From: a virus
Direction: 5' to 3' (one strand)
IMG/VR virus record: IMGVR_UViG_3300043465_002420
DNA: 64,000 bases
Shown: piece by piece, positions 7,622 through 26,778 of the stretch
Layout of the letters: each line of letters begins with the position of its first letter
How positions within the stretch are numbered: position 1 is the first letter of the stretch
The notes under the pieces: model-generated
The model's input: only the letters and a program-made list of their open reading frames with translations
What the model was told of the DNA's origin: nothing
The model's database searches: none
Made by a program: the position numbers and the translations under genes

Positions 7622-8032
7622 TTATTTGGTGATTTCCGATACTGTTCCTGTTAGTTTGATATTTTGGATTGGATGCCAATCAGTAATATCATTGCTCATA
7701 GCTGGTTTACCTCCAGCGAGTGTATTAACTGCTATAGTTACATGAGGTATTTTGTTATTGCTTTTGAATCCATTTACTTTAACGGCAATAGCCATATTAC
7801 TTATTCCTATTTCCGATGCTATTAGATTAACTTCTTGGTTGATAAGAGAATCTTCTGGTGGGTTAAGTTTTCCCAAATTGATAGTCATATGGTGAGCAAA
7901 AGTCTTCCAATTTTCTGGTATATATTCTTTAAGTTCATCCAATAATTTTTCATGGCTTTGTTGGTTTAAGACAATGGCAGAGTAGGATACTTTTTTATCT
8001 TCTCTGTTTTCAATCCAGTTTTTGAAGTTCAT
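7622..8032 (-). CDS. 2H phosphoesterase (cyclic phosphodiesterase, tRNA-ligase CPDase-like) with MNFKNW leader
   Basis: Two HxT motifs: HHMTI and PHVTI. Confidence 0.75.
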   Translation of the reverse strand: MNFKNWIENREDKKVSYSAIVLNQQSHEKLLDELKEYIPENWKTFAHHMTINLGKLNPPEDSLINQEVNLIASEIGISNMAIAVKVNGFKSNNKIPHVTIAVNTLAGGKPAMSNDITDWHPIQNIKLTGTVSEITK

Positions 8033-8036
8033 TGGG

Positions 8037-8129
8037 TTACTTTGCAGCTATTGTTTGAGTTAAGTATTTATCGATTAGTTCTTGTATTTCTGGTGTTTTC
8101 TTTGTGTAATATTTTACCAGTTTAAATAT
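8037..8129 (-). pseudogene. orphan C-terminal tail of an ART-solenoid paralog (IFKLVKYYTKKTPEIQELIDKYLTQTIAAK*)
   Basis: Near-identical to the tails of 8770, 10171 and 15428; in frame directly after the TAA of 8130-8726. Confidence 0.8.
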
Positions 8130-8726
8130 TTAAACAGTAACTGAGTACCCTATCGATAGACAAAAATCATTAAATTTTGAATAATTTTTGTATTTTATGA
8201 AATCTTTATGTTCAAATTTTGTTCTTCCACGAACATGTTTTTTGCTATTGATATCAACTGGTTTTTTATATTGAATGCCAAGATAATCACATAAAATTTC
8301 GAGTTGATCTTCTATTCTTATTTTAAGTTCAACTCTTGTATGGTTTTGAATTTTCTGATATCTTTGAATCAAATTTTCCATAGCAGAATTAACATCAAAA
8401 ACTTCTCCATGATTAATTTGAATGCACAAATGACTATTTAAAACAGAAATTGGATTCCTATAAATTAGAACTATGGGCAATTTTGAAATAGGTTCATAGT
8501 TACAATATTCCATAGCAGTGTAATTACTTTCTCCTTTTGCTATTTTGTATAATGGAATTCCATCATATTCAATCATTCCATTTGGTCCGTAATTCCAAAT
8601 TGAAGTAACTGGATTATAATGTAGCATTTCATGGCAACAAGGAAAGCCGCAATATGTCAAATAATTAGCGGTAAATGAAGTTCCTCCACCGTAATTTCCA
8701 CAAAAAATATGTGTTAAATTATTCAT
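8130..8726 (-). CDS. sulfotransferase-like P-loop protein
   Basis: GNYGGGTSF 5'-PSB-like loop, CHE, IYRNPISVLNS; related to 40992-41717. Confidence 0.6.
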   Translation of the reverse strand: MNNLTHIFCGNYGGGTSFTANYLTYCGFPCCHEMLHYNPVTSIWNYGPNGMIEYDGIPLYKIAKGESNYTAMEYCNYEPISKLPIVLIYRNPISVLNSHLCIQINHGEVFDVNSAMENLIQRYQKIQNHTRVELKIRIEDQLEILCDYLGIQYKKPVDINSKKHVRGRTKFEHKDFIKYKNYSKFNDFCLSIGYSVTV

Positions 8727-8733
8727 AATATTC

Positions 8734-8766
8734 CTATAAAATTTTTATAATTTGTTTAAAGTTCAT
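8734..8766 (-). pseudogene. N-terminal stub MNFKQIIKIL* of a lost paralog
   Basis: ATGAACTTTAAACAA follows the AAK-stop junction exactly as the intact paralogs do. Confidence 0.65.
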
Positions 8767-8769
8767 GAT

Positions 8770-10167
8770 TTACTTTGCAGCTTGTGTTTGAGGTAAGTAT
8801 TTATTGATTAGCTCTTGTATTTCTGGTGTATTTCCGTGGTATGTTGTTATTAGGTTTGCCATTTCTTTTTTATCGGTTGTATAGTGAAATAGATAATAAG
8901 CAATGAGAGGAGATATTTTTAATTTAGATACAATCCATTCTATCATTGCTTTGTCATATCTTTCAAACACATAACGAATTAAGTCGATAATGTTGCTTTC
9001 GTAGAATTTTGATTCTTTAGCAATAATTAATTCTATTGTTTTTTTTGCATAAATTGGTTTAATATCATGAATAAGATCTTTAATATTTTTATAAGATATT
9101 TTGGGTTTTTTATTTATTATAAGTTTTTTAATTGGTTCTGGATAGGTTGAATATAAAGTCAAATGTCTGACATCATTATCAGAAAGTTCTGGTTTATAAT
9201 TTACAATTAATTGTGCTATATGATCATTATGACTACCTGCATATCCAAGAAGTTTCAATACATTATCATCAGAAAGGTTTGTTTTTTTCTTTAGGATTAG
9301 TTCTGCAATTTTAACTTTACCTTCGTTTGTTGTATAAAAGGCCAAATTTTTAATATCATTATCAGAAAGATTTGTTTTTTTATTGATGATTAGTTCTGCC
9401 ATTTTGTCTTTATCTGTTGTATTTTTTAGAACTCCTTCAATATTTCTATGAGATTGAAGAATTGCATCCAGTTGTTGGTCAGAAATTTTATTTGGGTTGT
9501 ATTTTTCTCTTTTGACAATTTGTCCTTTTTTATTTTTATCGATGATATTATTGTCGATAGAGTATAAGACTTTTAAGGCATCTTTTGCGAATACCACACC
9601 TTGAGTTGATTCTTGAGGGTGGATTGTGCCAGTTCCATGATCTACGAATCCATCGACACCACATTTTCTAAGATTAGAGTTCCATTCTGATGGTTTGTCA
9701 TTTGCGATTGCTTTTGTTACAAGCCATAGCATAGAATAATTGCTACGAAGATTATATTCATCTTTTTTTATTTTATCTTCAGCCTCGTAAACTTTTTTGA
9801 GCGAGAAAACATTACCACTATAAAGTATATCCATACCTTTTTGTTCTTCATCACTAGGATTCATATGTAATATTTTTTGTGGTCTTGTGAATTCGCAGAC
9901 ATTGAGATAAGGTTGATCTCCTGCGAATGGAACATCCATTTCATTTTCAATGACATAATTTAATGGATAAAAATAAATTCCGATTGGTGTTTTATATTCG
10001 CTTTTTGGATTGATCCCAACTTTATCGATTGCGGTATAAGTTACGACAAGGTTTTCTGGATTGGGATGAGTTTTTTGAATATGTTGTAGTGCGAGAAGGG
10101 GATCACGAAATTCTTGATCCTTTATCATTATCTTTTCAGTTAGTATTAGCCATTGTTTAAATTTCAT
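8770..10167 (-). CDS. type-B ART-like domain plus helical repeats, capsid-leader protein
   Basis: TPIGIYFYP and GFVDHGTGTIHPQESTQGVVF; ~29-aa repeats; ends QAAK; paralog of 13527. Confidence 0.6.
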   Translation of the reverse strand: MKFKQWLILTEKIMIKDQEFRDPLLALQHIQKTHPNPENLVVTYTAIDKVGINPKSEYKTPIGIYFYPLNYVIENEMDVPFAGDQPYLNVCEFTRPQKILHMNPSDEEQKGMDILYSGNVFSLKKVYEAEDKIKKDEYNLRSNYSMLWLVTKAIANDKPSEWNSNLRKCGVDGFVDHGTGTIHPQESTQGVVFAKDALKVLYSIDNNIIDKNKKGQIVKREKYNPNKISDQQLDAILQSHRNIEGVLKNTTDKDKMAELIINKKTNLSDNDIKNLAFYTTNEGKVKIAELILKKKTNLSDDNVLKLLGYAGSHNDHIAQLIVNYKPELSDNDVRHLTLYSTYPEPIKKLIINKKPKISYKNIKDLIHDIKPIYAKKTIELIIAKESKFYESNIIDLIRYVFERYDKAMIEWIVSKLKISPLIAYYLFHYTTDKKEMANLITTYHGNTPEIQELINKYLPQTQAAK

Positions 10168-10170
10168 AGT

Positions 10171-11646
10171 TTACTTTGCAGCTATTGTTTGAGTTAGGTA
10201 TTGATTGATTACTTGTTGAATTTTTGGTGTTTTATTTGTGTGGTATTTATTTAGTATTTGTGCCATTTTTGGTTGGTCTTTTTCATAATCAAGTAAATTT
10301 ATAATGTTCTGATCAGAAAGTTTGTTTATATTATCTGTTCCTAATAGTTTTGCTATTTGTTCTTTATCTATTGTATGTCGAAGTAAAGTAATAACATCGG
10401 CATCAGAAATTTCTGTTTTGTGTTTTATAATTAGTTCTGCTATTTTATCTTTGTTTATTGAATTTATAAGCAGATCATAAACACTTTGATAAGAAAGTTC
10501 TAATTTTTTATTTATAATTGCTTCTGCTATTTTATCTTTATCGGATGCACTATAAAGTAAAAGTTGGATTATAGTGCTAGAAAAGTTTGTTTTTTTGTTT
10601 ATAATTAGTTTTGCTATTTTATCTTTGTCTGTTGTAGTTTGTAACAAATCAACAACATTTGTATCAGAAAGTTTTGTTTTGTATTTTACAATTAGTTCTG
10701 CTATTTCGTTTTGTTTAGTTGAATTTTTAAGAAAAACTTTAACATTAGTATCAGAAAGTTTTGTTTTGTACTTTATGATTACTTCTGCCATTTTGTCTTT
10801 ATCTGTTGACTTTTTAATCAAAAGACTGACATCAAAATCAGAAAGTTCGTTTAGATTTGATCCTAAATATTTTGCTACTGCTTCTAAATTTTTAGAATTT
10901 AACAATTTATTAAAAATGCTTTTACCGATTTCGTAATTGTAACCAAATGAAAATTTTTCTCTGTTTGGTGATTTATAAATACTTTTCATACTTGCCTTAT
11001 CGGTGGAGGTAATCCAGCCAATATTACTCTTTAGATCTTTCATTTTTTGTTCATCGTTTGCATCTGCTTCTGCAACCGCATAACCCAACATTGTTATTGT
11101 TTCATCTTTAACTGGTTGATATTTAACTAAGCAGTAGCCATCATTTGCTCCATAATAGATAATTCCTTTAATTGATTTTTCTATCCAATCATTTTGGTCG
11201 TAGAATTTTTTTGCTAAAATTGCCGAATAGGTTTCTTTTTCTTGTAGTTCATCGTAGTGTTTTAAGTTGTCGCCTTTTTGACCACCAAATTCCCCTTTAG
11301 TTACTTTGTTTAGTAGTCCAAATTTCTTTAATTGACTGCTTATTTTGTAATCATTGCCATGGATTTTTTTTGCTTCAGATAATTCAAATATGAGGTACTT
11401 GTCAAGGTCTGTTACTTTAAATTTGACTAATGTTTCGCCATACATTTTCATATAATCGGTAAATTGACTTTCTATTTTATAAGTAGTATAAAGACCACAA
11501 CCATACCAACAACCTTTACCTGCTCCTGATTTGAAATCAGATGTGAGTATATTTGATACAGAGTCAACATTTGTCCTATGATAGACAGTTGCAGTCTTAT
11601 TTTGAGCATAAATTTCTTCAGATATTAGCCATTCTTTAAAGTTCAT
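10171..11646 (-). CDS. type-A PARP-like (H-Y) ADP-ribosyltransferase domain plus helical repeats
   Basis: VYHRT...ILTSDF...YGCGLYTT resembles the PARP HGT...GF...FG.GIY pattern; ends TIAAK. Confidence 0.65.
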   Translation of the reverse strand: MNFKEWLISEEIYAQNKTATVYHRTNVDSVSNILTSDFKSGAGKGCWYGCGLYTTYKIESQFTDYMKMYGETLVKFKVTDLDKYLIFELSEAKKIHGNDYKISSQLKKFGLLNKVTKGEFGGQKGDNLKHYDELQEKETYSAILAKKFYDQNDWIEKSIKGIIYYGANDGYCLVKYQPVKDETITMLGYAVAEADANDEQKMKDLKSNIGWITSTDKASMKSIYKSPNREKFSFGYNYEIGKSIFNKLLNSKNLEAVAKYLGSNLNELSDFDVSLLIKKSTDKDKMAEVIIKYKTKLSDTNVKVFLKNSTKQNEIAELIVKYKTKLSDTNVVDLLQTTTDKDKIAKLIINKKTNFSSTIIQLLLYSASDKDKIAEAIINKKLELSYQSVYDLLINSINKDKIAELIIKHKTEISDADVITLLRHTIDKEQIAKLLGTDNINKLSDQNIINLLDYEKDQPKMAQILNKYHTNKTPKIQQVINQYLTQTIAAK

Positions 11647-11650
11647 AAGG

Positions 11651-11658
11651 TATTTATG
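11651..11658 (-). promoter_or_regulatory. T4-type late promoter CATAAATA
   Basis: Ends 4 nt upstream of ATG 11646; the same octamer is at 37403-37410. Confidence 0.55.
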
Positions 11659-11744
11659 TGAGTTTAATCGGGAAATAAGTCTTGTGTGTAATAAAAATTT
11701 TGTTATATTTTAAATTAAATTAATTGTGTTATTCCTAACAGGAA

Positions 11745-12683
11745 ATGAACATGGAACCAAGAATTATCGGTTATTGCAGGGTAAGTGGCGATGGGCAACA
11801 TGGAAATGATCAAGATGGCGTACCCCGACAACATCGAGTCATAGAGTCTTGGGCAAAAAAGAACAAACAACGAATTAGCGAATGGATTGAAGATCTTGGT
11901 GTAAGTGGAACTTTAGCGTTTGCTGATCGACCAGAATTATCGAAATTACTTGCAAACATTTATCCTGCTGGAATTTTCGTTGTGGAAAAAGCTGATCGTC
12001 TTGCAAGGGATCTCATTGAAGGCGAATTAATCATTCGGCATTTTAGTAGAGCAGGTTGGAAAGTCATTTCTGCTGAAACTGGTGAAGACTTAGCAAATTC
12101 AGAATCACCAACTGCAATTCTAATGCGACAGCTTACAGGGGCAATAGCGGAATTTGACAGAAGGAACACTGTTGCAAGATTGCGAGTTTCGAGGGAAAGA
12201 AAACGAAAAGAAACGGGCAAATGCGAAGGACGAAAAGCCTTTAACAATCAAAGTGTTCTTATGCGAATCAGAAAACTTATGCGAAAGAAAAATGGCACTA
12301 AGCCCAGTTTGCAATGGGTTGCTAATCAATTAAATGCAGAAGGAATGATAACAGCTAGTGGGAAAATGTGGACTACTGGAATGGTTTACCACTTCGTTCA
12401 TGGTGCTGGCTCTAAAGTTAAAAGAGAATCTGGAATATTGTCGCCATCTACACAAAACAAGGAAATTAAAATGGCAAAGAAACTTGTGGTTAAAAAAATA
12501 CAAGTAAATAACAAATATACTTACATATGTGATAAACCAGTAAGGATAGGAAGTGAGGTTAAATTACCAACTCCTCATTGGATGCGTGAATTTCAAGATG
12601 ACACATGGATTGGTAAGGTAACTGATTTAAAGAGTGATTACGATGGTGTGTGTGAAAGTGTAATTGAAGTATTAAAAAAATAG
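11745..12683 (+). CDS. serine recombinase (resolvase/invertase family) with C-terminal fused ~70-aa ORF
   Basis: GYCRVS catalytic Ser, DLGVSG, DRPEL, EKADRLARD; helical DNA-binding region; internal AAGGA-ATG (MAKKLVV). Confidence 0.9.
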   Translation: MNMEPRIIGYCRVSGDGQHGNDQDGVPRQHRVIESWAKKNKQRISEWIEDLGVSGTLAFADRPELSKLLANIYPAGIFVVEKADRLARDLIEGELIIRHFSRAGWKVISAETGEDLANSESPTAILMRQLTGAIAEFDRRNTVARLRVSRERKRKETGKCEGRKAFNNQSVLMRIRKLMRKKNGTKPSLQWVANQLNAEGMITASGKMWTTGMVYHFVHGAGSKVKRESGILSPSTQNKEIKMAKKLVVKKIQVNNKYTYICDKPVRIGSEVKLPTPHWMREFQDDTWIGKVTDLKSDYDGVCESVIEVLKK

Positions 12684-12725
12684 GATTCATTTAATAGATA
12701 TAATAACTTTCAATGGAGATTTAAA

Positions 12726-13016
12726 ATGAAGTCTTTAATTTTGTTTTTGGTTATGTTTTTGGGTATTAGTAGTGTTGCTGAAGCACAGTTCATTGTTGTT
12801 TATCCACAAGTTAGATATTACAACAATTATGGTTACAATTACAACAACTACAATTACAATAACTATGGTTATAGAAACTATGGTTACAACAACTACAACA
12901 ACTACAATTATGGTTACAACAATAACTGGAATAGGTATGTGACACCAAGTGGATACATGCCATTTAACAATCCATATTTTCAGATGGCTACACAGGGAAT
13001 TGGTAGAGGTTGGTAG
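12726..13016 (+). CDS. secreted Tyr/Asn-rich low-complexity (prion-like) protein
   Basis: GGAG SD; signal peptide ending AEA-Q; YNNYNY repeats; C-terminal NNPYFQMATQGI. Confidence 0.75.
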   Translation: MKSLILFLVMFLGISSVAEAQFIVVYPQVRYYNNYGYNYNNYNYNNYGYRNYGYNNYNNYNYGYNNNWNRYVTPSGYMPFNNPYFQMATQGIGRGW

Positions 13017-13057
13017 TTATTGTTTAAAATATATTTTTCAAAAAATTAAGGTACAAA

Positions 13058-13591
13058 ATGAAATCTTTTTATGAATATGTAAAAGTGCGTGATATTAATG
13101 AAGATTACTATGATTCTAGAAAACCCGTTGAAGGTTATGTTGATGCTAATGATTTAGTAGGACAAAGACTCTGGTTTCACACTAATAGAACTCATAAAAT
13201 TCAGGGTTTAAATGGCATGATTGGTATTTATCAAACTACACCAAGCGGTAGAAAAAAAGGATTGGCTGGCAAATATACAAATGAAGTAAGATTGTCGGAA
13301 CCTATTTTTTTTCAAACATCGGAATCTGGTGCCAAACAAATTATGGAAAAAGATAAAAGAACTTTAATTGCTGGTGTTTCTGGAAAAGTTGTTCCTACTA
13401 ATAATGATACAAGCGGTATGGTAAAGATTACTTATAATCCATTCAATGAAGATGCACCATGGTTTCATGCCATTGATGATTCAGAAAATAAAGAAATTGT
13501 GTCTGCTTCTGAAGTTTATTTCAATGCTACTGAAAATGGTCAGTGGGATATATGGGCAAAGAATCCTGTTCATGCTTTAAAAACTCTTTAA
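13058..13591 (+). CDS. hypothetical capsid-leader protein
   Basis: MKSFYEYVKVRDINE leader. Confidence 0.7.
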   Translation: MKSFYEYVKVRDINEDYYDSRKPVEGYVDANDLVGQRLWFHTNRTHKIQGLNGMIGIYQTTPSGRKKGLAGKYTNEVRLSEPIFFQTSESGAKQIMEKDKRTLIAGVSGKVVPTNNDTSGMVKITYNPFNEDAPWFHAIDDSENKEIVSASEVYFNATENGQWDIWAKNPVHALKTL

Positions 13592-14978
13592 TTTTTTCAT
13601 TTTTATTTTTATGATATTTTTCTATAATTTGTATTATTTTTGGTTTATCTTTTTCTGGAACTTTTTCATGTAAAAGTGTGATAGAAAACCAATTAAGTCT
13701 ACTTATATTATCTTCTCCTAATTTTTTTGCTATTTTGTCTTTATCAATTGCATAAGTTAGAATATTGATCATATTTTTATAAGTCATTTCTGGTAATCTT
13801 TCTATAAGAAGATTTGCCATCTTGTCTTTATCAGTTGCATATTGAAGAAAATTTTCGACATTATTATCAGTAAGTTTTGTTTTATAATCAATAATCAATT
13901 CTATGATTTTATCTTTATCGTTTACGAGTGAGATCATATATGAAACATTACTATCTGTAAATTCTGGGGTTTTTTGAATAATCATTTTTGCCATTTTGTC
14001 TTTATCTTTTGCATGATAAATCAAATCTTCAACATCGACATGAGAAATATATGTTTTATATTTTATGATTAGATCTGCCATTTTTTCTTTTTCTGTTGTA
14101 TTTTTAAACAAGTTTGTAAGATCTAAAGATCTACGAGATTGCAATAAGCCTATAATTTGTTCATCTGACATCTTATTGCTATTATATTTATCTGTTTTTT
14201 TGAAGTATGTTGAGTTGTCAATTGAGTGAAGTAGTTTCAAGGCACTGGTAGCAAAAACAACGCATTGGGTTGGTTCGCTTGGATGAATTGTTCCAGTTCC
14301 ATGATCTACAAATCCATCTATTCCACATTTTCTAAGATTGGCGTTCCATTGTGTGATTTTTCTATTTGCAAGTATTCTTGTTACGATCCACAATTTGGAG
14401 TAATTGCTACGAAGTTGGTATGCTGCTCCTTGCAATTCATCTTTTACATAATCATAATAAGTTTTGGCATCAATATACTTTTTATAAAGATCATCTTCTT
14501 TTTCTTGATCATATTGAAGATTATTCAGTTTGGTTTTTTTGTGATCTGATAATTTTTGAGCTTTATTGAACATGTCTACTGATGGATTAATTTCTTTAAT
14601 AGCTTGATCTACTTGTTCTTTTGGAAAAACATTGAGTAGTTCCATTCCATCTTGTTTAGACACATCGGGATTCATATGTAATATTTTTTGTGGTCTTGTG
14701 AATTCGCAGACATTAATATAAGGTTGATTTGCAGCGAATGGAACATTCATTTTCTTTTCAATTACATAATCTATAGGATAGAGATAAATGCCAAGTGGTG
14801 TTTCATATTTGCTTTCTGGATTAAGACCAACTTTATCGATTTTGGTAAAAGTTACGGCTAGTGTGTTGGGGAAAGGGTGATTTTTTCGAATATATTGTAG
14901 TGCAATAAGAGGCTCACGGAATTCTTGATCCTTTATCATTATCTTTTCTGTCAGTAGTAGCCATTCTTTAAAGTTCAT
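13527..14978 (-). CDS. type-B ART-like domain plus helical repeats (native tail replaced)
   Basis: TPLGIYLYP, HPSEPTQCVVF; tail diverges after IKEFLK and overlaps 13058-13591. Confidence 0.6.
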   Translation of the reverse strand: MNFKEWLLLTEKIMIKDQEFREPLIALQYIRKNHPFPNTLAVTFTKIDKVGLNPESKYETPLGIYLYPIDYVIEKKMNVPFAANQPYINVCEFTRPQKILHMNPDVSKQDGMELLNVFPKEQVDQAIKEINPSVDMFNKAQKLSDHKKTKLNNLQYDQEKEDDLYKKYIDAKTYYDYVKDELQGAAYQLRSNYSKLWIVTRILANRKITQWNANLRKCGIDGFVDHGTGTIHPSEPTQCVVFATSALKLLHSIDNSTYFKKTDKYNSNKMSDEQIIGLLQSRRSLDLTNLFKNTTEKEKMADLIIKYKTYISHVDVEDLIYHAKDKDKMAKMIIQKTPEFTDSNVSYMISLVNDKDKIIELIIDYKTKLTDNNVENFLQYATDKDKMANLLIERLPEMTYKNMINILTYAIDKDKIAKKLGEDNISRLNWFSITLLHEKVPEKDKPKIIQIIEKYHKNKNEKIKEFLKHEQDSLPIYPTDHFQ

Positions 14979-15424
14979 TGGGTTATCTTTTTTGAAAAAA
15001 CACTTAATATAAATTCTTTTATGTATGGAACAAAATCATAATTATTTATTTCATCTTTTGTAATAAATTTATAATTTGAATTTTCATAATCTAATTTTAT
15101 ATTTTGACTTTCTAATTCTCCATAAAAATAATAAATCTCTCCAGCATCAACAGTCATTATTTTATGATCAAAAGAAACATTATTTGGTTTTAATCCTATT
15201 TCTTCAAGGCACTCTCTTATTATGGCTTCTTTTGGGTTTTCTCCTTCTTCAATTCCGCCACCTACTAAGCTCCATTTGTTTGGCATCCAAGGAGCAGTAG
15301 ATCCTCTTTTTAGTATTAAGACTTTATTATCATTTAAAAGTCCTATTACAGATGTTTTAAATTTAGAATGATCTGTATCAGTTGATGTCTCTTCTTTCAG
15401 TATTAGCCATTCTTTAAAGTTCAT
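14975..15424 (-). CDS. NUDIX hydrolase with capsid leader
   Basis: GGGIEEGENPKEAIIRECLEEIGL Nudix box; MNFKEWLILKEE. Confidence 0.9.
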   Translation of the reverse strand: MNFKEWLILKEETSTDTDHSKFKTSVIGLLNDNKVLILKRGSTAPWMPNKWSLVGGGIEEGENPKEAIIRECLEEIGLKPNNVSFDHKIMTVDAGEIYYFYGELESQNIKLDYENSNYKFITKDEINNYDFVPYIKEFILSVFSKKITQ

Positions 15425-15427
15425 GGT

Positions 15428-16993
15428 TTACTTTGCAGCTATTGCTTGAGGTTCAAGGTATTTATCGATTAGCTCTTGAATTTCTGATGTTTTATTTGTG
15501 TGATATTTGTTTATGATTTGTGCGATTTTTGGTTTGTCGGTTACAGCAACAAGCAAACGATAAACACCATCATCAGAAAGTTCTGGTTCCTTTTTCATAA
15601 TATATTCTGCTATTTTTTCTTGGTCTTTTGCATATCGAATCAAATCACGAACACCATTTTCAATATCTATTTTTGATAGTTTGTTTATGATTAATTCTAT
15701 TATTTTGTCTTTGTCGTTTGCTTTAAAAATAAAATAATAAACATTATCCTCAGAAAGCTCTGGTTTGTATTTTATGATTATTTTTAACATCTCGTCTTTG
15801 TCATTTACTCTTGCAATCAAATCACGAATAAGAAGATTAGAAAGTTTGCTTATATTGTCTTTTTCTTTTTGCAATATTTCTGCTATTTTTTCTTTATTGT
15901 TTGCCTTAAGAAGCAAATAATAAATATTATCATCAGAAAGTTCTGGTTTCTTTTCAATAATTAGTTCTGCTATTTTGTCTATGTTATCTGCATAAGAAAG
16001 CAAATGAAAAACATTATGATCAGAAAGTTCTGGTTTCTTTTCAATAATTAATTTTGCTATTATATCTTTTTCCTTTGCATTCATAATTGAAGTGCTGACA
16101 TCTTTGTCAGAAAGTTTTGTTTTATACTTTATAATTACTTCTATCATTTTTTCTTTATCGGTTGCCTTATAAAGTAAAACGCCAACATTATCTTGAGAAA
16201 GTTGGTTTAGATTTGATCCTAATTTTTTTGCTGTGTATTCTACATTTTTAGATTTTAACAATTGATTCATAATATGGACATTGTCATCTTCGCCAAATGA
16301 AAATTTTTCTCTATTAGATATTGGTGATTTATAAATACTTTTAATACTTGCCTTATCGGTGGAAATAATCCAATTTTTTGATTTTGGATTTTTAAGTTCT
16401 TCCATCTTTTTCATATCATCATATTTTGCAACTGCATAGGCCAACATGGTTATTGTTCCATCTTGGACTGGTTCATATTTAACTAAACAATAACCATCAT
16501 TTGCTCCATAATAAATAATTCCTTTTACCGAATTTTCTATCCATTTGTTTTTTTCGTAGAATTTTACCGCCAAAACCGATGAAAAGCTTTCTTTTTCTTG
16601 TTGTTCATCGTATTCTTTCAACTTACTTTCATCTACTTTGTTTAATACTCCTAATTTCTTTAATTGATCGCTTATTTTGTAATCCTTGCCATGTATTTGT
16701 TTTGCCACAGATAATTGAAATATAAGATATTTATCGAGATCTGTTACTTTAAATTTGACTACTGCTTTACCATAAGTTTCCATGTAATTAGTAAATTGGC
16801 TTTCTATTGCAAAAGTAGTGTAAAAACCACAACCATACATACAACCTGAACCAACTTTAAAATCTTTTGTGAGTATGCTTGATACAGCTTGAACGCTTTT
16901 TTCTTCATCGCAACCAGGACAAGTTCTATGATAGACAGTTGCAGTCTTATTGGGGAAGATTTCTTCAGATATTAGCCATTCTTTAAAGTTCAT
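15428..16993 (-). CDS. type-A PARP-like ART plus helical repeats
   Basis: VYHRT, YGCGFYTT, GIIYYGANDGYCLVKY; ends AIAAK. Confidence 0.65.
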   Translation of the reverse strand: MNFKEWLISEEIFPNKTATVYHRTCPGCDEEKSVQAVSSILTKDFKVGSGCMYGCGFYTTFAIESQFTNYMETYGKAVVKFKVTDLDKYLIFQLSVAKQIHGKDYKISDQLKKLGVLNKVDESKLKEYDEQQEKESFSSVLAVKFYEKNKWIENSVKGIIYYGANDGYCLVKYEPVQDGTITMLAYAVAKYDDMKKMEELKNPKSKNWIISTDKASIKSIYKSPISNREKFSFGEDDNVHIMNQLLKSKNVEYTAKKLGSNLNQLSQDNVGVLLYKATDKEKMIEVIIKYKTKLSDKDVSTSIMNAKEKDIIAKLIIEKKPELSDHNVFHLLSYADNIDKIAELIIEKKPELSDDNIYYLLLKANNKEKIAEILQKEKDNISKLSNLLIRDLIARVNDKDEMLKIIIKYKPELSEDNVYYFIFKANDKDKIIELIINKLSKIDIENGVRDLIRYAKDQEKIAEYIMKKEPELSDDGVYRLLVAVTDKPKIAQIINKYHTNKTSEIQELIDKYLEPQAIAAK

Positions 16994-17010
16994 AGTTTAC
17001 AACCTAGTAA

Positions 17011-18516
17011 TTATGTAAATGATCCAGTTGATAGAACTTTTTTACCTAAATTTAATTTATATCCGCTGCTGTATTTATCAATGAATTCTTGAATTTTTGG
17101 AGTTTTCTTTGTGTGGTATTTGTTTATTATTTGTGCTATTTTGTCTTTATCGTTTGCATCATCATGAAATAAATCAATAACACTTTGATCATCAAGCTTG
17201 CTTATGTTGTCTTCTTTTTCTTGTAATCGTTCTGCTATTTTTTCTTTATCGTTTGCAAAATTAAGCAAATATTGAACATCGAAATAAGAAAGTTCTGGTT
17301 TATTTCCAATAATTAGTTCTGCTATTTTGTCTTTATCTGTTGCTTTACGAAGCAACAATTCAACATGTTTACCAGAAAGTTTTGATTTCTTTTCAATAAT
17401 TAGTTCTGCTATTTTATCTTGTTTGTCGGTTGCAAACTGAATCAAGCTATAAATATTCATATTAGAAAGTTCTGGTTTATTTTTAACAATTAATTCTGCT
17501 ATTTTGTCTTTGTTGGTTGCAGTACGAAGCAAATTTTCAACATTCTCATCAGTAAGTTCTGTTTTATATTTTATAATTAGTTCTGCTATTTTGTCTTTGT
17601 CGGTTGCATAATGAAGCAAATGAAAAACATTCCAATCGGTAAGTTCTGTTTTATATTTTGCAATCACTTCTGCCATTTTGTCTTTATCTTCTGCATGATG
17701 AAGCAAACCAGAAATATTCTCATCAGAAAATTTGTCTAGATATAATCCTAATTTTTTTGCTGTTTTTTCTAAGTTTTTAGATGTTAAAAAAATATTTTTG
17801 ACATTTTCGATTTCGCTATAATCTCCAAATGCAAACTTTTCTTTATTTTCGATTGGAGATTTATAAACATTTTTAATGGGTGTACCTAATATACCAACTG
17901 ATTTAATCCAACCAATATTACTTTTCAGTTCTTCCATCTTTTTCATATCATCATATTTTGCGACTGCATAGCCCAACATGGTTATTGTTTTATCTTGAAC
18001 TGTTGGATATTTAACTAAACAATAACCATCTCTTGATCCATAATAGATAATTCCTTTTACCGACTTTTCTATCCAATTATTTTGTTCATAGAATTCATAT
18101 GCCAAAACTGATGAAAATTTTTCTTTTTCTTGTCGTTTATCGTAATATTCTAATTTACTTTCATTTACATTTGGTTTGTTTAGTAGTCCTAATTTTTTAA
18201 ATTGACTGCTAATTTTATAATCATTGCCATGTATTTGTTTTGCCTCAGACAATTGAAATATGAGGTATTTATCGAGGTCTGTTACTTTAAATTTGACTAA
18301 TGCTTCGCCATACATTTCCATATAATCGACAAATTGGCTTTCTATTTTATAAGTAGTATAAAGACCACAACCATAAGAGCAACCTGCACCTGCACCTGCT
18401 TTAAAATCAGATGTGAGTATGCCTGATACATCTTTGAGACTTCTTGTTCTATGATAGACTGTTGCGGTCTTATTGGGGAATATTTCTTCAGATATTAACC
18501 AATGTTTAAAGTTCAT
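17011..18516 (-). CDS. type-A PARP-like ART plus helical repeats (tail altered)
   Basis: Same motifs; tail KYSSGYKL... replaces KYLxQxIAAK. Confidence 0.65.
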   Translation of the reverse strand: MNFKHWLISEEIFPNKTATVYHRTRSLKDVSGILTSDFKAGAGAGCSYGCGLYTTYKIESQFVDYMEMYGEALVKFKVTDLDKYLIFQLSEAKQIHGNDYKISSQFKKLGLLNKPNVNESKLEYYDKRQEKEKFSSVLAYEFYEQNNWIEKSVKGIIYYGSRDGYCLVKYPTVQDKTITMLGYAVAKYDDMKKMEELKSNIGWIKSVGILGTPIKNVYKSPIENKEKFAFGDYSEIENVKNIFLTSKNLEKTAKKLGLYLDKFSDENISGLLHHAEDKDKMAEVIAKYKTELTDWNVFHLLHYATDKDKIAELIIKYKTELTDENVENLLRTATNKDKIAELIVKNKPELSNMNIYSLIQFATDKQDKIAELIIEKKSKLSGKHVELLLRKATDKDKIAELIIGNKPELSYFDVQYLLNFANDKEKIAERLQEKEDNISKLDDQSVIDLFHDDANDKDKIAQIINKYHTKKTPKIQEFIDKYSSGYKLNLGKKVLSTGSFT

Positions 18517-18519
18517 AGT

Positions 18520-19092
18520 TTATTTTGCAGCCATTGGAATTTGTGGGTATTGTTTTTTAAACCAATCCATATATTTTTGATTAACAATAACTTTTTTATT
18601 TACATCTCCAACTCCAATAACATGAGCTTGTACATCACCAGAATCATTTACACTTAGGTTTGGTATAAACATTGCCATCATTTTCATAGTTTCTGGTGGT
18701 GGCACTATAAATCCTCTTTTTTCTGCCATGCTTGCTATACTATCACTTACAGCACCCCAAACAGGTTTGTTGAGATTATCAACAAGACTTAATCCTTTTA
18801 GAATAGCTCTAGTACTTCCTGCAACTCCTGTTAATTTTACTAAACCTGAATTTTGAAATCTAACACAAACAAATCCTGCTGCTGGATCATGTTCAGATTC
18901 TGGTGGTATTCCAAAAAAAGTCCATGATCTTGATCTTCCAAGGAATGTGTTCATATCCCATGCTTTTCCTGTTGATTTAAGATAAGACTCAACAAAAATA
19001 TTGTAAACCCATTCTGGCACAATGTTCTTATCACTTAATGTAAAACTTTGTGGTTCTGTATTTTCTAATAACCATTCAATAAATGTAATCAT
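18520..19092 (-). CDS. capsid-leader protein, possible GNAT-like fold; ends AAK
   Basis: MITFIEWLLE; GFVCVRF...VKLTGVAG...PVWGAVS...EKRGF pattern. Confidence 0.5.
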   Translation of the reverse strand: MITFIEWLLENTEPQSFTLSDKNIVPEWVYNIFVESYLKSTGKAWDMNTFLGRSRSWTFFGIPPESEHDPAAGFVCVRFQNSGLVKLTGVAGSTRAILKGLSLVDNLNKPVWGAVSDSIASMAEKRGFIVPPPETMKMMAMFIPNLSVNDSGDVQAHVIGVGDVNKKVIVNQKYMDWFKKQYPQIPMAAK

Positions 19093-19108
19093 ATATAATT
19101 TTTCCTAT

Positions 19109-20677
19109 TTATTTTTTAGGGGTCGGCAAACTATCAATAAAGTCTGAAACTTCTTGGCCTTTATAATTAAAGATATCTCGTGGATCATCTGTGACTACCT
19201 TCGCTGCCGCCTTAACTGCTGGTGCCACTACATCTAATGCACTTTTTGCAACACTACCACCAGAATTTTTAATTTCATCAGAACTAAATATAAATGATCG
19301 AAGGGTATAACCAGCACTAACAGCCTCCCTTCTTGCATCTTCAGCATCTTTTGGATTTAGTCCAGAATCTCCAGCAGCAGAAGATAAAGCTTTTAATTTC
19401 ACGAAAATACCATTTACAAAAGAATTGTGCTTCAATTGATATTCATTAAAACGATTCATTAATTCAGAACTATTGTAGGTTGATATAACATCTTTTAAAT
19501 CTGCTATTCGGTCTTGATCATTTCCCATTTTAAACAATAAATGCCACAAAACATCTTTCGCCTTGTCAGATTTTTCAGTTATTGCTTGTTTTAATATTTG
19601 TGCATGAAGCGTATTATCATAAAAATCTGTTTTCTTCATTGCATCTATCAAATCTGGATTTCTAATCAAATTTGATATCTTTGATGGATCAAGAGAATTT
19701 GCAGCATTCTGAAGTTTGTCTCCCAATATATCATCAGTTTCTTTTTGTGGAACCCCAACTTTTTCAGCAACTTTTCTAATATCATCACTTTCGGCTGCTG
19801 ACAATTTTCCTTGAATCATATCTGTGACTTTTTCTGTTGCTTTAGCTCCAAGTTTACCGACATAATAACCTATGATTACACCGAACAAGACTTTGCCAGT
19901 AGCTACCGGATTGTTTGCTATCATTTTCATAACACTAGAAAATAATTTGGCGATACTAGAAATTGAATTTGATATAATGCTAACTCCAGCACCAGCACCA
20001 TAACCAAGACCTTTACCTAAAAATTCTCCAACTCCTCTTGCATCTTCTTGGTACTCATTTTCCAAATAAATTTTTTGGTATAAGTTTATATCTTTATTTC
20101 TTAAGAATGAATTGAATGAGTCAAATGAATCTGCAACTACTTTAGGAGTTGCGGCTGTTGGGTTTTTACTTTTCCAATCTACCCACATTTTATCTAATTC
20201 TTCGACTGTTTTGCCAGTTAGTTTTTCCCATGCTGTATCATACATTTTGTTGGCTAAATTTGTCGCAACTCTTCTTAGTGATAAAGCGAGAATATATGCA
20301 GGAAGAGCAGCGGGTGCAGTTGCTGCAATACCAACAATCATAGCTGCTGTAACTGGTGATATCCCAACTTTGTCTGCAAATTTTTGTGACACATTTGCGA
20401 CTATTTCAATAGTTTTTAAAATCCCTGGGGTAAGAAACTTTCCAAGTTCCTCAACATCTTTGGCACCTTTGTCATATCCTTGCTTTAGACCTGTAGAAAG
20501 TCCACCTGCAAAGTTCTTAGCACCTTGAAGAATTGGTGATTTAGATGGATCGAGAAAATCCATTTCATTTAGATCAACGCAATAAGATTCTGAATAAGTA
20601 GTTTGTCCTATTTGACTTCTTAAGCTATTCCACCATTCTTGTTCTGTAATAATTCTTTGATTTGTGTAGTGTGACAT
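19109..20677 (-). CDS. Gly/Ala-rich protein with hydrophobic hairpins, putative membrane-inserting virion protein
   Basis: VSPVTAAMIVGIAAT...LRR and GKGLGYGAG segments; paralog of 44535 and 28017. Confidence 0.6.
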   Translation of the reverse strand: MSHYTNQRIITEQEWWNSLRSQIGQTTYSESYCVDLNEMDFLDPSKSPILQGAKNFAGGLSTGLKQGYDKGAKDVEELGKFLTPGILKTIEIVANVSQKFADKVGISPVTAAMIVGIAATAPAALPAYILALSLRRVATNLANKMYDTAWEKLTGKTVEELDKMWVDWKSKNPTAATPKVVADSFDSFNSFLRNKDINLYQKIYLENEYQEDARGVGEFLGKGLGYGAGAGVSIISNSISSIAKLFSSVMKMIANNPVATGKVLFGVIIGYYVGKLGAKATEKVTDMIQGKLSAAESDDIRKVAEKVGVPQKETDDILGDKLQNAANSLDPSKISNLIRNPDLIDAMKKTDFYDNTLHAQILKQAITEKSDKAKDVLWHLLFKMGNDQDRIADLKDVISTYNSSELMNRFNEYQLKHNSFVNGIFVKLKALSSAAGDSGLNPKDAEDARREAVSAGYTLRSFIFSSDEIKNSGGSVAKSALDVVAPAVKAAAKVVTDDPRDIFNYKGQEVSDFIDSLPTPKK

Positions 20678-20735
20678 AGATCCTCATATTTGTTGATAAT
20701 ATGGTATCTATGTGGTTCGATGAAGGAAATTAATG

Positions 20736-21146
20736 TTACATATGCACTAATTTTTCTATAATTTTGCTATCTTTTTCTAATAGCCATTGTAGTCCAAAAT
20801 GAATGGGTGATGGCCAATTTCCAAATTCGACCCATTTATAATCTTGAGTTTCCCAATTTAAACATGGAGTGAATTCTTCATCTATTATTCCCAAGAAATT
20901 GTGATATTTAAATACAAACCAATTCATGGTTGATAATTTGATTAGTTCGATATTTCCATTATATCCAGATTCTTCTCTTAGTTCTCTTTTTGCTGTTTCT
21001 TGTGGAATTTCATCAGGGGAAGAAAAACCTCCCCAAGTTCCCCAAGTATTTGGTTGACCAACTTGCTTAGACCTATGAGGAAGCAGTATTTTTTTTGTGT
21101 TTTTGGCCAAAATGATACATCCAGAACCTTGTTTTACAAATTGCAT
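20736..21146 (-). CDS. NUDIX hydrolase
   Basis: GG...DEIPQETAKRELREESGY Nudix box. Confidence 0.9.
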   Translation of the reverse strand: MQFVKQGSGCIILAKNTKKILLPHRSKQVGQPNTWGTWGGFSSPDEIPQETAKRELREESGYNGNIELIKLSTMNWFVFKYHNFLGIIDEEFTPCLNWETQDYKWVEFGNWPSPIHFGLQWLLEKDSKIIEKLVHM

Positions 21147-21213
21147 GTTTTTCCCAATACTGTTAAAAATAAATTACCTAAGTAACTATAGCAATTAATT
21201 TTTGATAGTAAAG

Positions 21214-23385
21214 TTAGTCGAAGTCACTACTGAAGCGAATTCTTTTTCTTCTTTTTAGTTCTTGGTTTATCATATCTTGTACTTCTGGCGATTTCTTATA
21301 TCTAAAGGCATCCAAACTAGTGAGTGATTTCAAAAATGAATATGGCTTATCAATCAATTTTACCATTTCATTTATATCTTTTGCATTTCTGATCAAAATA
21401 GAAGCTTCTTCAAGACTGAGTTGTTTTTTAATTTTAATCAAGGTCATTGCCATTTTTAATTTGTCTGTTGCGTATTGAACAAAATATTGAAATGCCACTA
21501 TAGAAATTTCTTGATTTTTTTCTTTTAGAATTTGGATAATATCATTTATAGTTTTATCTTTATCTTTTGATCTGTCGAAAATCCATCCTATGACTTTGTC
21601 ATGAACTGGATATTTACTTTGTCTTAAATTATTTAAAATAAGTTCTAAAATTTCAGTATTATCTTTTAGATTAGAAGTCAAATAAGAAACATCATCACCA
21701 GAAAGATTTTCTTTATATTTTATAATTATTTTTGCCATTTGTTCTCTTCTATCAATTGCATTATCAAGCAAAGAAGAAATATTTTTATCAGAAAGTTTGC
21801 TTATATTATCTGATCCTAACCGTTCTGCTATTTTGTCTTTATCTTTTGAATAAAAAAGCAAATGAAAAACATTACTATTAGAAAGATTTGTTTTTTTGTA
21901 TCTTATAATTAGATCTGACATTTTGTCTTTATCAGTTGCAGTACCAAGTAAACTATAAACATTGCTATTAGAAAGTTCTGGTTTTTTTCTTATAATTAAT
22001 TCTGCCATTTTTTCTTTGTCATTTGCCTTAAGAAGCAAATTTTCAACAGTATCATCAGAAAGTTTTGGATTTTTGTTTAGAATTATTTCTGCTATTTTTT
22101 CTTTATCATTTGCAAATTGAATCAAATTAAAAACATTATTATCAGAAAGTTCTGGTTTCTTTTCAATAATCAATTCTGCTATTTTTTCTTTGTTGATTGC
22201 AGCATAAATCAAATCACCAACATTTTTGTCAGAAAGGTTTGATTTCTTTTGGATAATTAGTTGTGCTATTTTGTCTCTGTCTTTTGTATTTACAGCCAAA
22301 CTATAAACATCACTATCAGAAATTTCTTGATGCTTTTCAATAATAAGTTGTGCTATTTTGTCTTTGTCAGTTGAATAAGAAATCAAATGATAAACATTAT
22401 TACGAGAAAATTTTGGGTTGTAGTTTATAATTAGTTCTGAAACTTTGTCTTTGTCTTTTGCATTTCTAAACAATGAAACAAGAATTTCGCCATAAAGTTC
22501 TGGTATGTATTTTATAATTACTTCTGCCATTTGGTCTTTGTCACTTGCTCTATCAAGTAAATCAGAAATATCTTTATCAGAAAGTTTTTTTAAATTTGAT
22601 TCTAATTTTTTTGCTGTTCGTTCTAAGTTTTTAGAATTCAAAAAAATACTTTTGACATTTTCAATTTCAGTATTGCTGCCAAACGCAAGTTTTTCTTTCA
22701 TTTTTTCTGGAGCCTTGTAGGTAGTTTTAAAAGCTGTGCCTAATGTTCCAACCGATTTTATCCAACCAATATTACTTTTTAGTTCTTCCATCTTTTTCAT
22801 ATTATTAGGTTCTGCGACTGCATAACCCAACATAGTTATTGTTCCATCTTTAACTGTTGGATATTTCACTAAACAATAACCATCATTTGCCCCATAATAG
22901 ATAATTCCTTTTACCGAATTTACTATCCAACCATTTTGTTCATAGAATTGTTTTGCTAAAGCTGATGAGTATTTTTCTTTTTCTTGTTGTTCATCGTAAT
23001 ATTTTAATTTAATTTCATTTACATTTGGTTTGTTTAGTAGTCCTAATTTCTTTAATTGATCGCTTATTTTATAATCCTTGCCATGTATTTGTTTTGCCAC
23101 AGATAATTGAAATATGAGATATTTGTCTAGTTCTTCCACTTTAAATTTGACTACTGCTTGACCATATGTTTGCATATAATTGGTAAATTGGCTTTCTATT
23201 GCAAAAGTAGTATAAAGACCACAACCGTACATACAACCTGAGCCAACTTTGTAATCTTTTGTGAGTATACTTGATACGGCTTTGACGCTATCATCTTTAT
23301 TGCAATCTTGACATGTTCTATGATAGACAGTTGCGGTCTTATTGGGGAATATTTCTTCAGATAGTAGCCAATGTTTAAAGTTCAT
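21214..23385 (-). CDS. type-A PARP-like ART plus the longest helical-repeat tract
   Basis: Start MNFKHWLLSEE at 23385 (track start 23433); same ART motifs; more than 10 repeats. Confidence 0.65.
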   Translation of the reverse strand: MNFKHWLLSEEIFPNKTATVYHRTCQDCNKDDSVKAVSSILTKDYKVGSGCMYGCGLYTTFAIESQFTNYMQTYGQAVVKFKVEELDKYLIFQLSVAKQIHGKDYKISDQLKKLGLLNKPNVNEIKLKYYDEQQEKEKYSSALAKQFYEQNGWIVNSVKGIIYYGANDGYCLVKYPTVKDGTITMLGYAVAEPNNMKKMEELKSNIGWIKSVGTLGTAFKTTYKAPEKMKEKLAFGSNTEIENVKSIFLNSKNLERTAKKLESNLKKLSDKDISDLLDRASDKDQMAEVIIKYIPELYGEILVSLFRNAKDKDKVSELIINYNPKFSRNNVYHLISYSTDKDKIAQLIIEKHQEISDSDVYSLAVNTKDRDKIAQLIIQKKSNLSDKNVGDLIYAAINKEKIAELIIEKKPELSDNNVFNLIQFANDKEKIAEIILNKNPKLSDDTVENLLLKANDKEKMAELIIRKKPELSNSNVYSLLGTATDKDKMSDLIIRYKKTNLSNSNVFHLLFYSKDKDKIAERLGSDNISKLSDKNISSLLDNAIDRREQMAKIIIKYKENLSGDDVSYLTSNLKDNTEILELILNNLRQSKYPVHDKVIGWIFDRSKDKDKTINDIIQILKEKNQEISIVAFQYFVQYATDKLKMAMTLIKIKKQLSLEEASILIRNAKDINEMVKLIDKPYSFLKSLTSLDAFRYKKSPEVQDMINQELKRRKRIRFSSDFD

Positions 23386-23457
23386 AGATTTATTTACACA
23401 ACAAATAAGATAAAATCCACTAAATAATGTCATTACAAGTTAAGAGTGGGGATAATT

Positions 23458-26061: not shown

Positions 26062-26778
26062 TTAAAACAAAGAATCTATAATTGGTGGTGGCTCATCCCA
26101 TGCTGAAGTCTTAGATGTAGTTATTGGTTTTGGTTTAGAATAAACTTCTGGTTGTTTATCTTTTAATTGTTTTTTATTTGATTTTGGCTTTGGAAATTTT
26201 GCAAAGAATGCATCCAATTGATTGTTGTTTTCCCCGCCATCGATAAACTCATATTTTCCTCCCTGACCCAATTCTTGTTGCAATATTTGAGTAGCAGTCT
26301 TTCCTTCGATTGGCTTAATATCTGCAATTTTTCCATCAACAATTATATATCTTATTCCGTCTTTAAGTTCTTTACCAAATGGAGCCACTACAATGAACGC
26401 CCCATCTCTGTAAGCTGTTGAAGCTCCAAGTCCCGATCCTACTCCATTTATATTATTTGTTAGTGGTGCTGTATGATTTGGTGCCTTGTTTCTTTTAAGC
26501 ATTTCTATTAGTGACTTTATTTGAAAACCAAGACTAATTTTAGCTAATCCATGTGCATCCAACTGTACATTCAAATCATCATATTTTGGCAATAAGTAAA
26601 AAAGAGTATCTTTATCGCTGTATCGATTGTAGTTACCGACAGATCTCATCAATGGCTTTAAATTATCTGGTAATTCTTGGTTCCATATTTCAGAAACATC
26701 AATCGATTCATAATATTGATTCTCTGTAATAATACCAGCTAGGTACAATTTGTAATTAGGATAGTTTTTATTGTACAT
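26062..26778 (-). CDS. hypothetical protein
   Basis: Likely start MYNKNY; KLYLAGIITE motif. Confidence 0.6.
   Translation of the reverse strand: MYNKNYPNYKLYLAGIITENQYYESIDVSEIWNQELPDNLKPLMRSVGNYNRYSDKDTLFYLLPKYDDLNVQLDAHGLAKISLGFQIKSLIEMLKRNKAPNHTAPLTNNINGVGSGLGASTAYRDGAFIVVAPFGKELKDGIRYIIVDGKIADIKPIEGKTATQILQQELGQGGKYEFIDGGENNNQLDAFFAKFPKPKSNKKQLKDKQPEVYSKPKPITTSKTSAWDEPPPIIDSLF

Follow-up and report, generated by a model that had tools for sequence, protein, structure and literature searches.

A tandem array of predicted ADP-ribosyltransferase-fold proteins with T4-like leaders and variable solenoid tails in an IMG/VR virus

We have analyzed a 64,000-nucleotide stretch of viral DNA (IMG/VR record IMGVR_UViG_3300043465_002420; hereafter the window), in which six paralogous genes are arrayed between positions 8770 and 23385. 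Our results suggest that each gene encodes a modular protein made of a short T4-like leader, a domain with the ADP-ribosyltransferase (ART) fold and a tail of variable helical repeats. On balance, we favor the interpretation that these proteins are capsid-targeted, ejected ART effectors that are aimed at their targets by the variable solenoid, and that the phage probably has a T4-type head. Packaging, cleavage, catalysis and target binding are all steps that we infer from sequence and predicted structure. The genes fall into two groups, four of type A (A1 to A4) and two of type B (B1 and B2):

8770-10167, minus strand: type B paralog B1, 465 amino acids (aa); leader, predicted ART-fold domain (residues ~35-213), ~5-8 repeats and AAK cap
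10171-11646, minus strand: type A paralog A1, 491 aa; C-terminal cap ends ..QTIAAK
11614-11646, minus strand: leader of A1 (residues 1-11)
11008-11601, minus strand: predicted ART-fold domain of A1 (residues ~16-213)
10189-10845, minus strand: eight 29-aa repeats of A1 (residues 268-486)
13527-14978, minus strand: type B paralog B2, 483 aa; 50-aa helical insertion in the predicted ART domain, ~5-6 repeats
15428-16993, minus strand: type A paralog A2, 521 aa; 8 repeat units, CxxC insertion after HRT
17011-18516, minus strand: type A paralog A3, 501 aa; 7 repeat units, C-terminal end unlike the others (no AAK)
21214-23385, minus strand: type A paralog A4, 723 aa from the MNFKHWL start; ~10-14 repeat units, CxxC insertion as in A2

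All six proteins follow a common plan, with a leader of the form M(N/K)FK.WL..E, an N-terminal domain (N-domain) of ~220 aa and a tail of 29-aa repeats. The four type A proteins are 57-63% identical over their full length and 68-76% identical over the N-domain, and have the motifs VYHRT, YGCG(L/F)YTT and GIIYYG..DGYCLVKY in common. B1 and B2 share 50% identity overall, and both carry TP.GIY.YP and HP.E.TQ.VVF. The conserved MNFKHWL start of A4 lies at position 23385, and the listed open reading frame (ORF) extends to an upstream ATG at 23433. An initial annotation of this region had described an array of six such genes, four of one type and two of another, and had quoted the motifs that define them. 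All six ORFs are indeed present on the minus strand, and every quoted motif was found in them. Its further descriptions of a virion-type leader, of a 29-aa repeat present in variable number and of a solenoid tract were also supported by the results given below.

Fold and active-site residues of the N-domains

Structural models of the N-domains were built with AlphaFold from alignments of 79 (type A) and 61 (type B) homologs. The type A model had a predicted local distance difference test (pLDDT) score of 86.6 and a predicted template modeling (pTM) score of 0.85; the corresponding values for type B were 87.2 and 0.82. A Foldseek search of the PDB returned weak E-values, but the lists consisted nearly entirely of ARTs, including AcrIF11, MbcT, diphtheria toxin, PARP10/12/14/15 and the tankyrases. 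When the Foldseek candidates were aligned with VIA-align, type A matched MbcT (Z 7.7, root-mean-square deviation 3.9, 140 residues aligned), cholix toxin (Z 7.0), exotoxin A (Z 6.0) and PARP1 (Z 5.8), and type B matched chain B of the cyanophage A4 structure 9k3a (Z 6.8), cholix toxin (Z 5.5) and ParT (Z 5.3). The strongest test of the fold was a VIA-align search, independent of Foldseek, against 48,161 representative solved chains. Only 71 chains reached Z>=2 with type A, and the top ~47 rows were essentially all members of the ART superfamily (MbcT 7.7, cholix 6.3, ParT 6.3, exotoxin A (ExoA) 5.8, PARP1/2 5.5). For type B, the top ~34 rows were ARTs, led by 9k3a chain B (Z 6.8, 157 residues aligned) and followed by cholix (5.3) and ParT (5.2).

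Searches of viral structures and of language-model features pointed in the same direction. In a viral structure library, type A matched a PolyVal ADP-ribosyltransferase (E 6e-6), an ART-PolyVal-like protein of Yersinia phage fHe-Yen9-03 (E 1e-4) and PARP-like viral proteins, and in a language-model protein atlas both types adjoined the ART-PolyVal and AcrIF11 clusters with scores of 0.90-0.94. Sequence profiles gave far less. Pfam and PHROGs assigned the six proteins to no significant family, the sole Pfam ART match being Tox-ART-HYD1 below threshold (E 0.11, 13.6 bits against a cut-off of 25), and HMMER profiles had no match to the N-domain among PDB sequences. We nevertheless regard the ART fold as confirmed for both N-domains at the level of predicted structure, because the match lists are homogeneous and the whole domain is covered, and not because of any single score. 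This agrees with the initial annotation, which had inferred an ART fold and had named structure prediction as a way to check it. When the type A and type B profiles were compared with hhalign, the leader alone aligned and the N-domains were not detectably homologous in sequence, which indicates two separate ART-fold families. The ratio of nonsynonymous to synonymous substitution rates (dN/dS) in the N-domains was 0.30-0.44, consistent with purifying selection.

Conserved residues of type A appear to lie where an ART active site would be expected. H23 is found at the end of strand 1 (residues 18-25), Y53 is in strand 2 (51-55) within the motif Y-G-C-G-L-Y-T-T, and D169 is in the turn before strand 5 (170-176). 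Judging from the start and end offsets of the alignments, H23 would coincide with the catalytic His of diphtheria toxin, cholix and ExoA, and D169 with their catalytic Glu. Among 113 type A representatives sharing no more than 50% identity, H23 is conserved in 98%, R24 and T25 in 94%, the G-x-G motif in 95%, Y53 in 96% and D169 in 75%. Based on these observations, type A is predicted to be an H-Y-D enzyme of the ART-PolyVal/Tox-ART-HYD kind. This arrangement sets it apart from the Glu-less, PARP-like H-Y-hydrophobic mono-ARTs to which the initial annotation had likened it, and that likeness has to be given up in view of the conserved Asp before strand 5. The H..Y signature that had been proposed for NAD binding is present in type A (H23 and Y53) and does not apply to type B, which has the Tyr and a Glu and lacks the strand-1 His. 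The residues of type B that are invariant down to homologs of 31% identity are Y65 and Y67 in strand 2, E186 just before the strand at 188-192, and also K49, N53, D176 and Q189. Strand 1 of type B carries an invariant Thr (T45) and neither His nor Arg.

Two of the type A proteins differ from the others next to the strand-1 motif. Right after H-R-T, at residues ~26-33, A2 and A4 contain a CxxC insertion (CPGCDEEK and CQDCNKDD, respectively). Together with the conserved C46 and C50, these cysteines could form a four-Cys metal site that would be absent from the other two type A proteins.

Type A belongs to a large family. A profile of eight type A N-domains retrieved 875 clusters (50% identity) at E<=1e-3, 536 at <=1e-10 and 86 at <=1e-30. 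Among 50,697 phage records, a megablast search of the region found no near match to the window, tblastn found no match to type A, and type B matched only two uncultured 735-kb records, LR756501.1 and LR756503.1, with 25% identity. The Pfam model of ART-PolyVal (PF18760) had no match at E<=1 with the first row of either the type A or the type B alignment, did not occur among the 25 families listed for the 79 and 61 members, and was absent from both of the related viral contigs searched. Of seven large relatives (1076-1554 aa), none matched PF18760 or any other Pfam domain.

Leader peptide, expression signals and repeat tails

The leader was searched for as the pattern F-x-x-[WFY]-[LIFVM]-x(0-4)-E at the N-terminus of all non-shadow ORFs of at least 90 aa. 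It occurs on 19 of the 71 such ORFs in the window (20 with the corrected start of A4), whereas ~0.45 would be expected from its frequency inside proteins. The bearers include a Nudix hydrolase, a CCA-adding-type nucleotidyltransferase, a C39 cysteine peptidase and a weak 2H-phosphoesterase-like protein:

7622-8032, 14975-15424, 26768-28015 and 42971-43483: leader-bearing ORFs, in addition to ~15 others

The peptide is kept while distant copies use different codons. Homologs on other contigs likewise keep it, in 113 of 120 cases for type A and 88 of 104 for type B, and 99 of 100 aligned representatives have Glu at position 10. Typical leaders are MNFKEWLISE-E, MKFKQWLILTE-K and MNFKEWLILKE-E, and leaders from related contigs are closer still to the capsid-targeting sequence (CTS) of T4 (MKTFKQFLES and MITFKQFLEN). 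The T4 CTS is MKTYQEFIAE (PMC8442874). Its ten residues suffice for targeting, with positions 4 and 7 serving targeting itself and positions 8 and 10 serving processing by gp21 at an L/I-X-E site (PMC9026906). MNFKEWLISE-E fits this pattern of ~10 residues with an L/I-X-E ending near residue 10.

A related IMG/VR contig, which carries a type A homolog and many leaders of this kind, encodes a head module of the T4 type. It includes an S77 prohead protease (228 aa, E 2.7e-26), a scaffold-like protein of 318 aa with a Glu-rich coiled coil and a major capsid protein of the Gp23 type (E 2.7e-88), and the genes follow the 21-22-23 order of T4. The occurrence of such a module and of the leaders in one contig makes T4-like targeting and cleavage plausible for the group as a whole.

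The sequences upstream of the genes may point to late expression. The motif ATAAATA occurs 0-8 nucleotides before start codons in ~7 cases, compared with ~0.3 expected:

11651-11657, minus strand: ATAAATA motif, ending 4 nucleotides before the A1 start codon
11657, 28868, 37409, 51951 and 55311, minus strand: ATAAATA near starts
1694 and 60727, plus strand: ATAAATA near starts

ATAAATA is the core of the T4 late promoter TATAAATA. In a window this AT-rich (G+C ~30%), the motif is modest evidence, and it suggests late, leaderless transcripts from T4-late-like promoters. No Shine-Dalgarno sequence was visible upstream of the array genes, and a scan for sigma-70 promoters and terminators did no better than on shuffled sequences.

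The tails are built from a 29-residue unit with the consensus L-S-D-x-N-V-x-x-L-L-x-x-A-T-D-K-D-K-I-A-E-L-I-I-K-Y-K-P-E. A hidden Markov model of the repeat counted 6-8 units in five of the proteins and ~10-14 in the 723-aa A4, and the underlying 87-nucleotide DNA unit is present in at least 34 copies with 60-84% identity. High entropy is restricted to repeat positions 4, 7, 8, 11 and 12, and partly 14, which share one face of helix 1; helix 2 hardly varies. The tails thus appear to be modular alpha-solenoids with one variable helix face. The ratio of nonsynonymous to synonymous polymorphism (pN/pS) was 1.73 at the variable positions, a value that is circular, since the positions were picked for their variability, and deserves little weight. 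In an HMMER search of PDB sequences, a profile containing the tail matched designed helical repeat proteins only, with 8vd6 at E 5e-8. As 8vd6 is a computational design, this match shows only that the tail is an alpha-solenoid. The net charge of the tails is -1 to +9 over 218-477 residues, or about neutral, which rules out a polycationic DNA-binding role for them.

Homologs from other contigs show that the N-domains are not tied to a single kind of tail. Among close homologs of type A, only 64 of 120 contain at least two of the 29-residue units; for type B the figure is 72 of 104. Ankyrin repeats replace the unit in 19 of the 79 type A and 7 of the 61 type B homologs scanned (best E 2e-34), and remote relatives of type B have LRV or weak TPR repeats as tails. 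The finding that ankyrin, LRV or TPR repeats can follow these N-domains is consistent with a tail that binds targets. To judge by homologs whose contigs have the same length, several long contigs appear to hold 3-5 paralogs each.

Proposed mechanism, rival explanations and known systems

Taken together, the leader, the predicted fold and the tails allow us to propose a mechanism. The proteins would be made late and docked to the scaffolding core of the prohead by the leader, as the T4 CTS does, and a gp21-type prohead protease would then cut the leader off after the Glu. Packed in the capsid and ejected with the DNA, each protein could bind its substrate through the hypervariable face of helix 1 (positions 4, 7, 8, 11 and 12), while its ART domain would use host NAD+ to ADP-ribosylate a different host macromolecule for each paralog. 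Candidate targets include defense proteins and transcription or translation factors. This would be a tankyrase-like design, in which a repeat array recruits the target and the ART domain modifies it. The conserved junction of cap, stop and leader, together with the 87-nucleotide repeats, would allow the array to grow, shrink and reshuffle by homologous recombination.

Several of our observations weigh against this interpretation. No head gene (S77 protease, scaffold or Gp23) was found within the 64-kb window, some 20 tagged ORFs in 64 kb would be an unusually large cargo, and one Nudix gene of the array (20736-21146) has no leader. The tails are about neutral, whereas the internal proteins of T4 are basic. 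With regard to the enzyme, neither ART domain was detected by any Pfam, PHROG or PDB sequence model, the Z-scores of the fold are middling (5-7.7), and D169 is kept in just 75% of the type A representatives. Type B lacks the NAD-binding strand-1 His or Arg of well-studied ARTs and may be inactive or carry out other chemistry. There is also no cultured relative among the 50,697 phage records.

Some of these points lead to other explanations, each of which we consider unlikely. The one that we take most seriously among them is that the leader does not target the capsid and that the proteins are expressed in the ordinary way and work in the cytoplasm of the infected cell. The leader could then serve other functions; for example, it could make initiation efficient where mRNAs are leaderless or have no Shine-Dalgarno sequence, be recognized by a chaperone or modifying enzyme of the phage, or act as a recombination handle. 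In agreement with this, about 20 of the 71 ORFs are tagged, among them a housekeeping-like CCA-adding enzyme, a high number for proteins packed in a capsid; Shine-Dalgarno sequences are not visible, and several genes appear to be leaderless; conservation at the array junctions extends to the DNA itself; and no head genes are nearby. However, it is the peptide that is kept in distant copies despite their different codons. It resembles MKTYQEFIAE, its processing site has the Glu in 99 of the 100 representatives aligned, and a relative encodes the T4-type protease, scaffold and capsid module.

Less probable, in our opinion, is that the proteins are mainly structural components of the head interior, similar to inner-body or scaffold proteins, with the ART fold as a dead binding module and the repeats as filler. 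Giant phages do pack many paralogous internal proteins (PMC9026906), and pseudo-PARP domains (TASOR and PARP13) are among the matches. This explanation is most plausible for type B, which has no strand-1 His or Arg and whose best match, gp27 of cyanophage A4, is a structural part of the pre-ejectosome with no assigned enzymatic role. On the other hand, the most conserved residues in 113 divergent type A representatives are the ART motif positions, the polar residues K49, N53, D176, E186 and Q189 of type B are invariant down to 31% identity, and the variation of the repeats is confined to one helix face and not spread evenly. We find it marginally harder still to believe that the domains are NAD+ glycohydrolases or phosphorylases, or destroyers of NAD-derived immune signals (MbcT/RES-like), which blunt NAD-based defenses together with the adjacent Nudix hydrolases. 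The NAD+ phosphorylase MbcT is the best solved match of type A (Z 7.7), the RES, NatT and VPA0770 toxins also rank high, and Nudix genes follow ART genes twice in the array. Moreover, packaged Nudix and ART proteins have been linked to countering NAD-derived signals (Iyer et al. 2022; PMC9503650). However, the closest viral structures are ART-PolyVal and PARP-like, the Z gaps among ART subfamilies lie within ~1-2 units, and a long, variable, protein-binding solenoid or ankyrin tail is hard to explain for an enzyme that acts on a small molecule.

The interpretation that the six proteins are packaged ART effectors has precedents in phages. Iyer et al. (2017; PMC5512222) described ARTs of polyvalent proteins in which strands 1, 2 and 5 bear His, Tyr and Asp, respectively, and placed them with the Tox-ART-HYD2 clade. 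The same authors predicted that the heads of myoviruses often carry ARTs, Nudix and Macro proteins for deployment as infection begins, and that the ARTs encoded by a jumbo phage may number ten or more (Iyer et al. 2017, 2022; PMC5512222, PMC9503650). ART-PolyVal (PF18760)/Tox-ART-HYD resembles type A in its ART fold, in the His, Tyr and Asp on strands 1, 2 and 5, in its phage origin and in predicted packaging and delivery with the virion, and ART-PolyVal is the nearest neighbor of type A by predicted structure and language-model features. In contrast, its Pfam model fails to detect the proteins of the window. ART-PolyVal domains are embedded in a giant multi-enzyme protein or fused to MuF, whereas the predicted ART domains described here are N-terminal in proteins of 460-720 aa, between a T4-like leader and a solenoid tail. 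The initial annotation had not recognized this architecture among described phage ARTs. Head-packaged phage ARTs, ART-PolyVal included, had in fact been predicted by Iyer et al. in 2017 and 2022, and what appears to be new is the coupling of a tag, an ART domain and an exchangeable tail. More specifically, we consider the novelty to be the two ART-fold families missed by domain libraries, the joining of such domains to a tag like that of T4 and to solenoid tails that can be exchanged and have a hypervariable face, and the tandem, recombining arrangement in huge phages.

The internal proteins of T4 (IPI-III and Alt) offer a parallel for the leader, in that they have a short N-terminal tag with an L/I-X-E site and otherwise unrelated, fast-evolving bodies. 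Alt is itself a packaged and injected ART that modifies host RNA polymerase and other proteins. It belongs to the R-S-E clade, whereas type A is H-Y-D and type B x-Y-E, and no sequence similarity was seen. Neither type carries the Arg, S-T-S and E-x-E motifs of that clade (T4 Alt/VIP2); type A has H-R-T, G-x-G-x-Y and D-G, and type B has T, G-x-Y-x-Y and E-x-x-Q. R-S-E toxins also came low in the fold search (Scabin Z 5.0, LT 3.6). T4 has a handful of tagged proteins, compared with ~20 in the window.

The best match of type B is a segment of a solved phage structure, residues 1418-1609 of cyanopodophage A4 9k3a chain B (Foldseek E 5e-5, Z 6.8, 157 residues aligned, 18% identity), which also matches type A (Z 5.4). 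From the numbering, this domain belongs to gp27 of the cyanophage A4 pre-ejectosome, resolved inside the capsid. An ART-like domain of this kind thus travels in the virion of at least one phage. The likeness goes no further than the domain, as gp27 is a structural podovirus ejection protein of more than 1700 aa with no leader and no 29-aa repeats. The paper on the cyanophage A4 structure contains no occurrence of ADP-ribosylation or NAD and assigns gp27 no enzymatic role. AcrIF11, a phage ART that disables one host defense protein, is among the structural and feature neighbors with weak scores (Z 3.8-4.4). In tankyrase, a repeat array likewise recruits targets for an H-Y-x ART domain, and some homologs of the proteins described here carry ankyrin tails; this is an analogy only, and the order of the domains is reversed.

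More broadly, we tentatively suggest, as a possibility that falls short of being probable, that huge T4-headed phages carry a re-targetable, injected ADP-ribosylation system consisting of tag-loaded tandem effectors with swappable tails, each aimed at another host defense or takeover target, and two unannotated ART families, one of which (type B) lacks the strand-1 His and Arg. If this is true, a large family unseen by current domain libraries (875 type A clusters at 50% identity) would join the phage enzymes that are delivered with the DNA, and a simple sequence tag could be used to predict which proteins uncultured huge phages eject. Sets of natural paralogs whose main difference is the binding surface could also help to find the host proteins that phages must disable first. 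The idea derived from T4 internal proteins, of diverse defense-countering cargo with only a tag in common, would then extend to huge phages of probable Bacteroidota hosts.

Layout of the array and neighboring genes

Other genes and gene remnants lie within the array and next to it:

8033-8129, minus strand: fossil C-terminal cap (..KYYTKKTPEIQELIDKYLTQTIAAK-stop; orphan cap KKTPEIQELIDKYLTQTIAAK-stop), in frame behind the stop of a 198-aa ORF (8130-8726)
8727-8766, minus strand: truncated leader remnant, MNFKQIIKIL-stop
11745-13591, plus strand: block with a serine recombinase/invertase, a 96-aa ORF and an L5 gp82-like ORF, between B2 and A1
14975-15424, minus strand: leader-bearing Nudix hydrolase, directly downstream of A2
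18520-19092, minus strand: 190-aa leader-bearing protein that ends in MAAK
20736-21146, minus strand: second Nudix hydrolase, without leader, directly downstream of A4

The junctions between array genes are conserved. Genes end in ..KYHT.KTP.IQ.LI.KYL.Q..AAK-stop, and after the stop of this cap come 3-4 bases and then ATGAA(C/A)TTTAAA. The cap at 8033-8129 and the leader at 8727-8766 are the remains of a lost seventh paralog. The 198-aa ORF between them has no Pfam or PHROG match and is unrelated to the array. The plus-strand serine recombinase block interrupts the array and has taken the place of the end of B2; the C-terminus of B2 overlaps the block and is unlike the usual AAK cap. No inverted repeats were found around the block, so there is no sign of an inversion switch driven by the recombinase. 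The gutted seventh unit and the recombinase block inside the array suggest an array in flux, which would be explained most simply by homologous recombination at the junctions and repeats.

Two further proteins of the array are of interest. The 190-aa protein at 18520-19092 has a homolog in the 735-kb phage LR756501, where it matches the C-terminal domain of a 737-aa protein with 31% identity (E 3e-23). Since the 737-aa protein also has a type B ART-like domain, it provides a fusion link between the 18520-19092 protein and type B. The 18520-19092 domain has a GNAT-like R/Q-x-x-G-x-A stretch and no family match. Finally, the minus-strand gene at 19109-20677 encodes a 522-aa protein that has no leader and no family match. 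It contains Gly/Ala-rich hydrophobic stretches, and could be a membrane-active or ejection protein.

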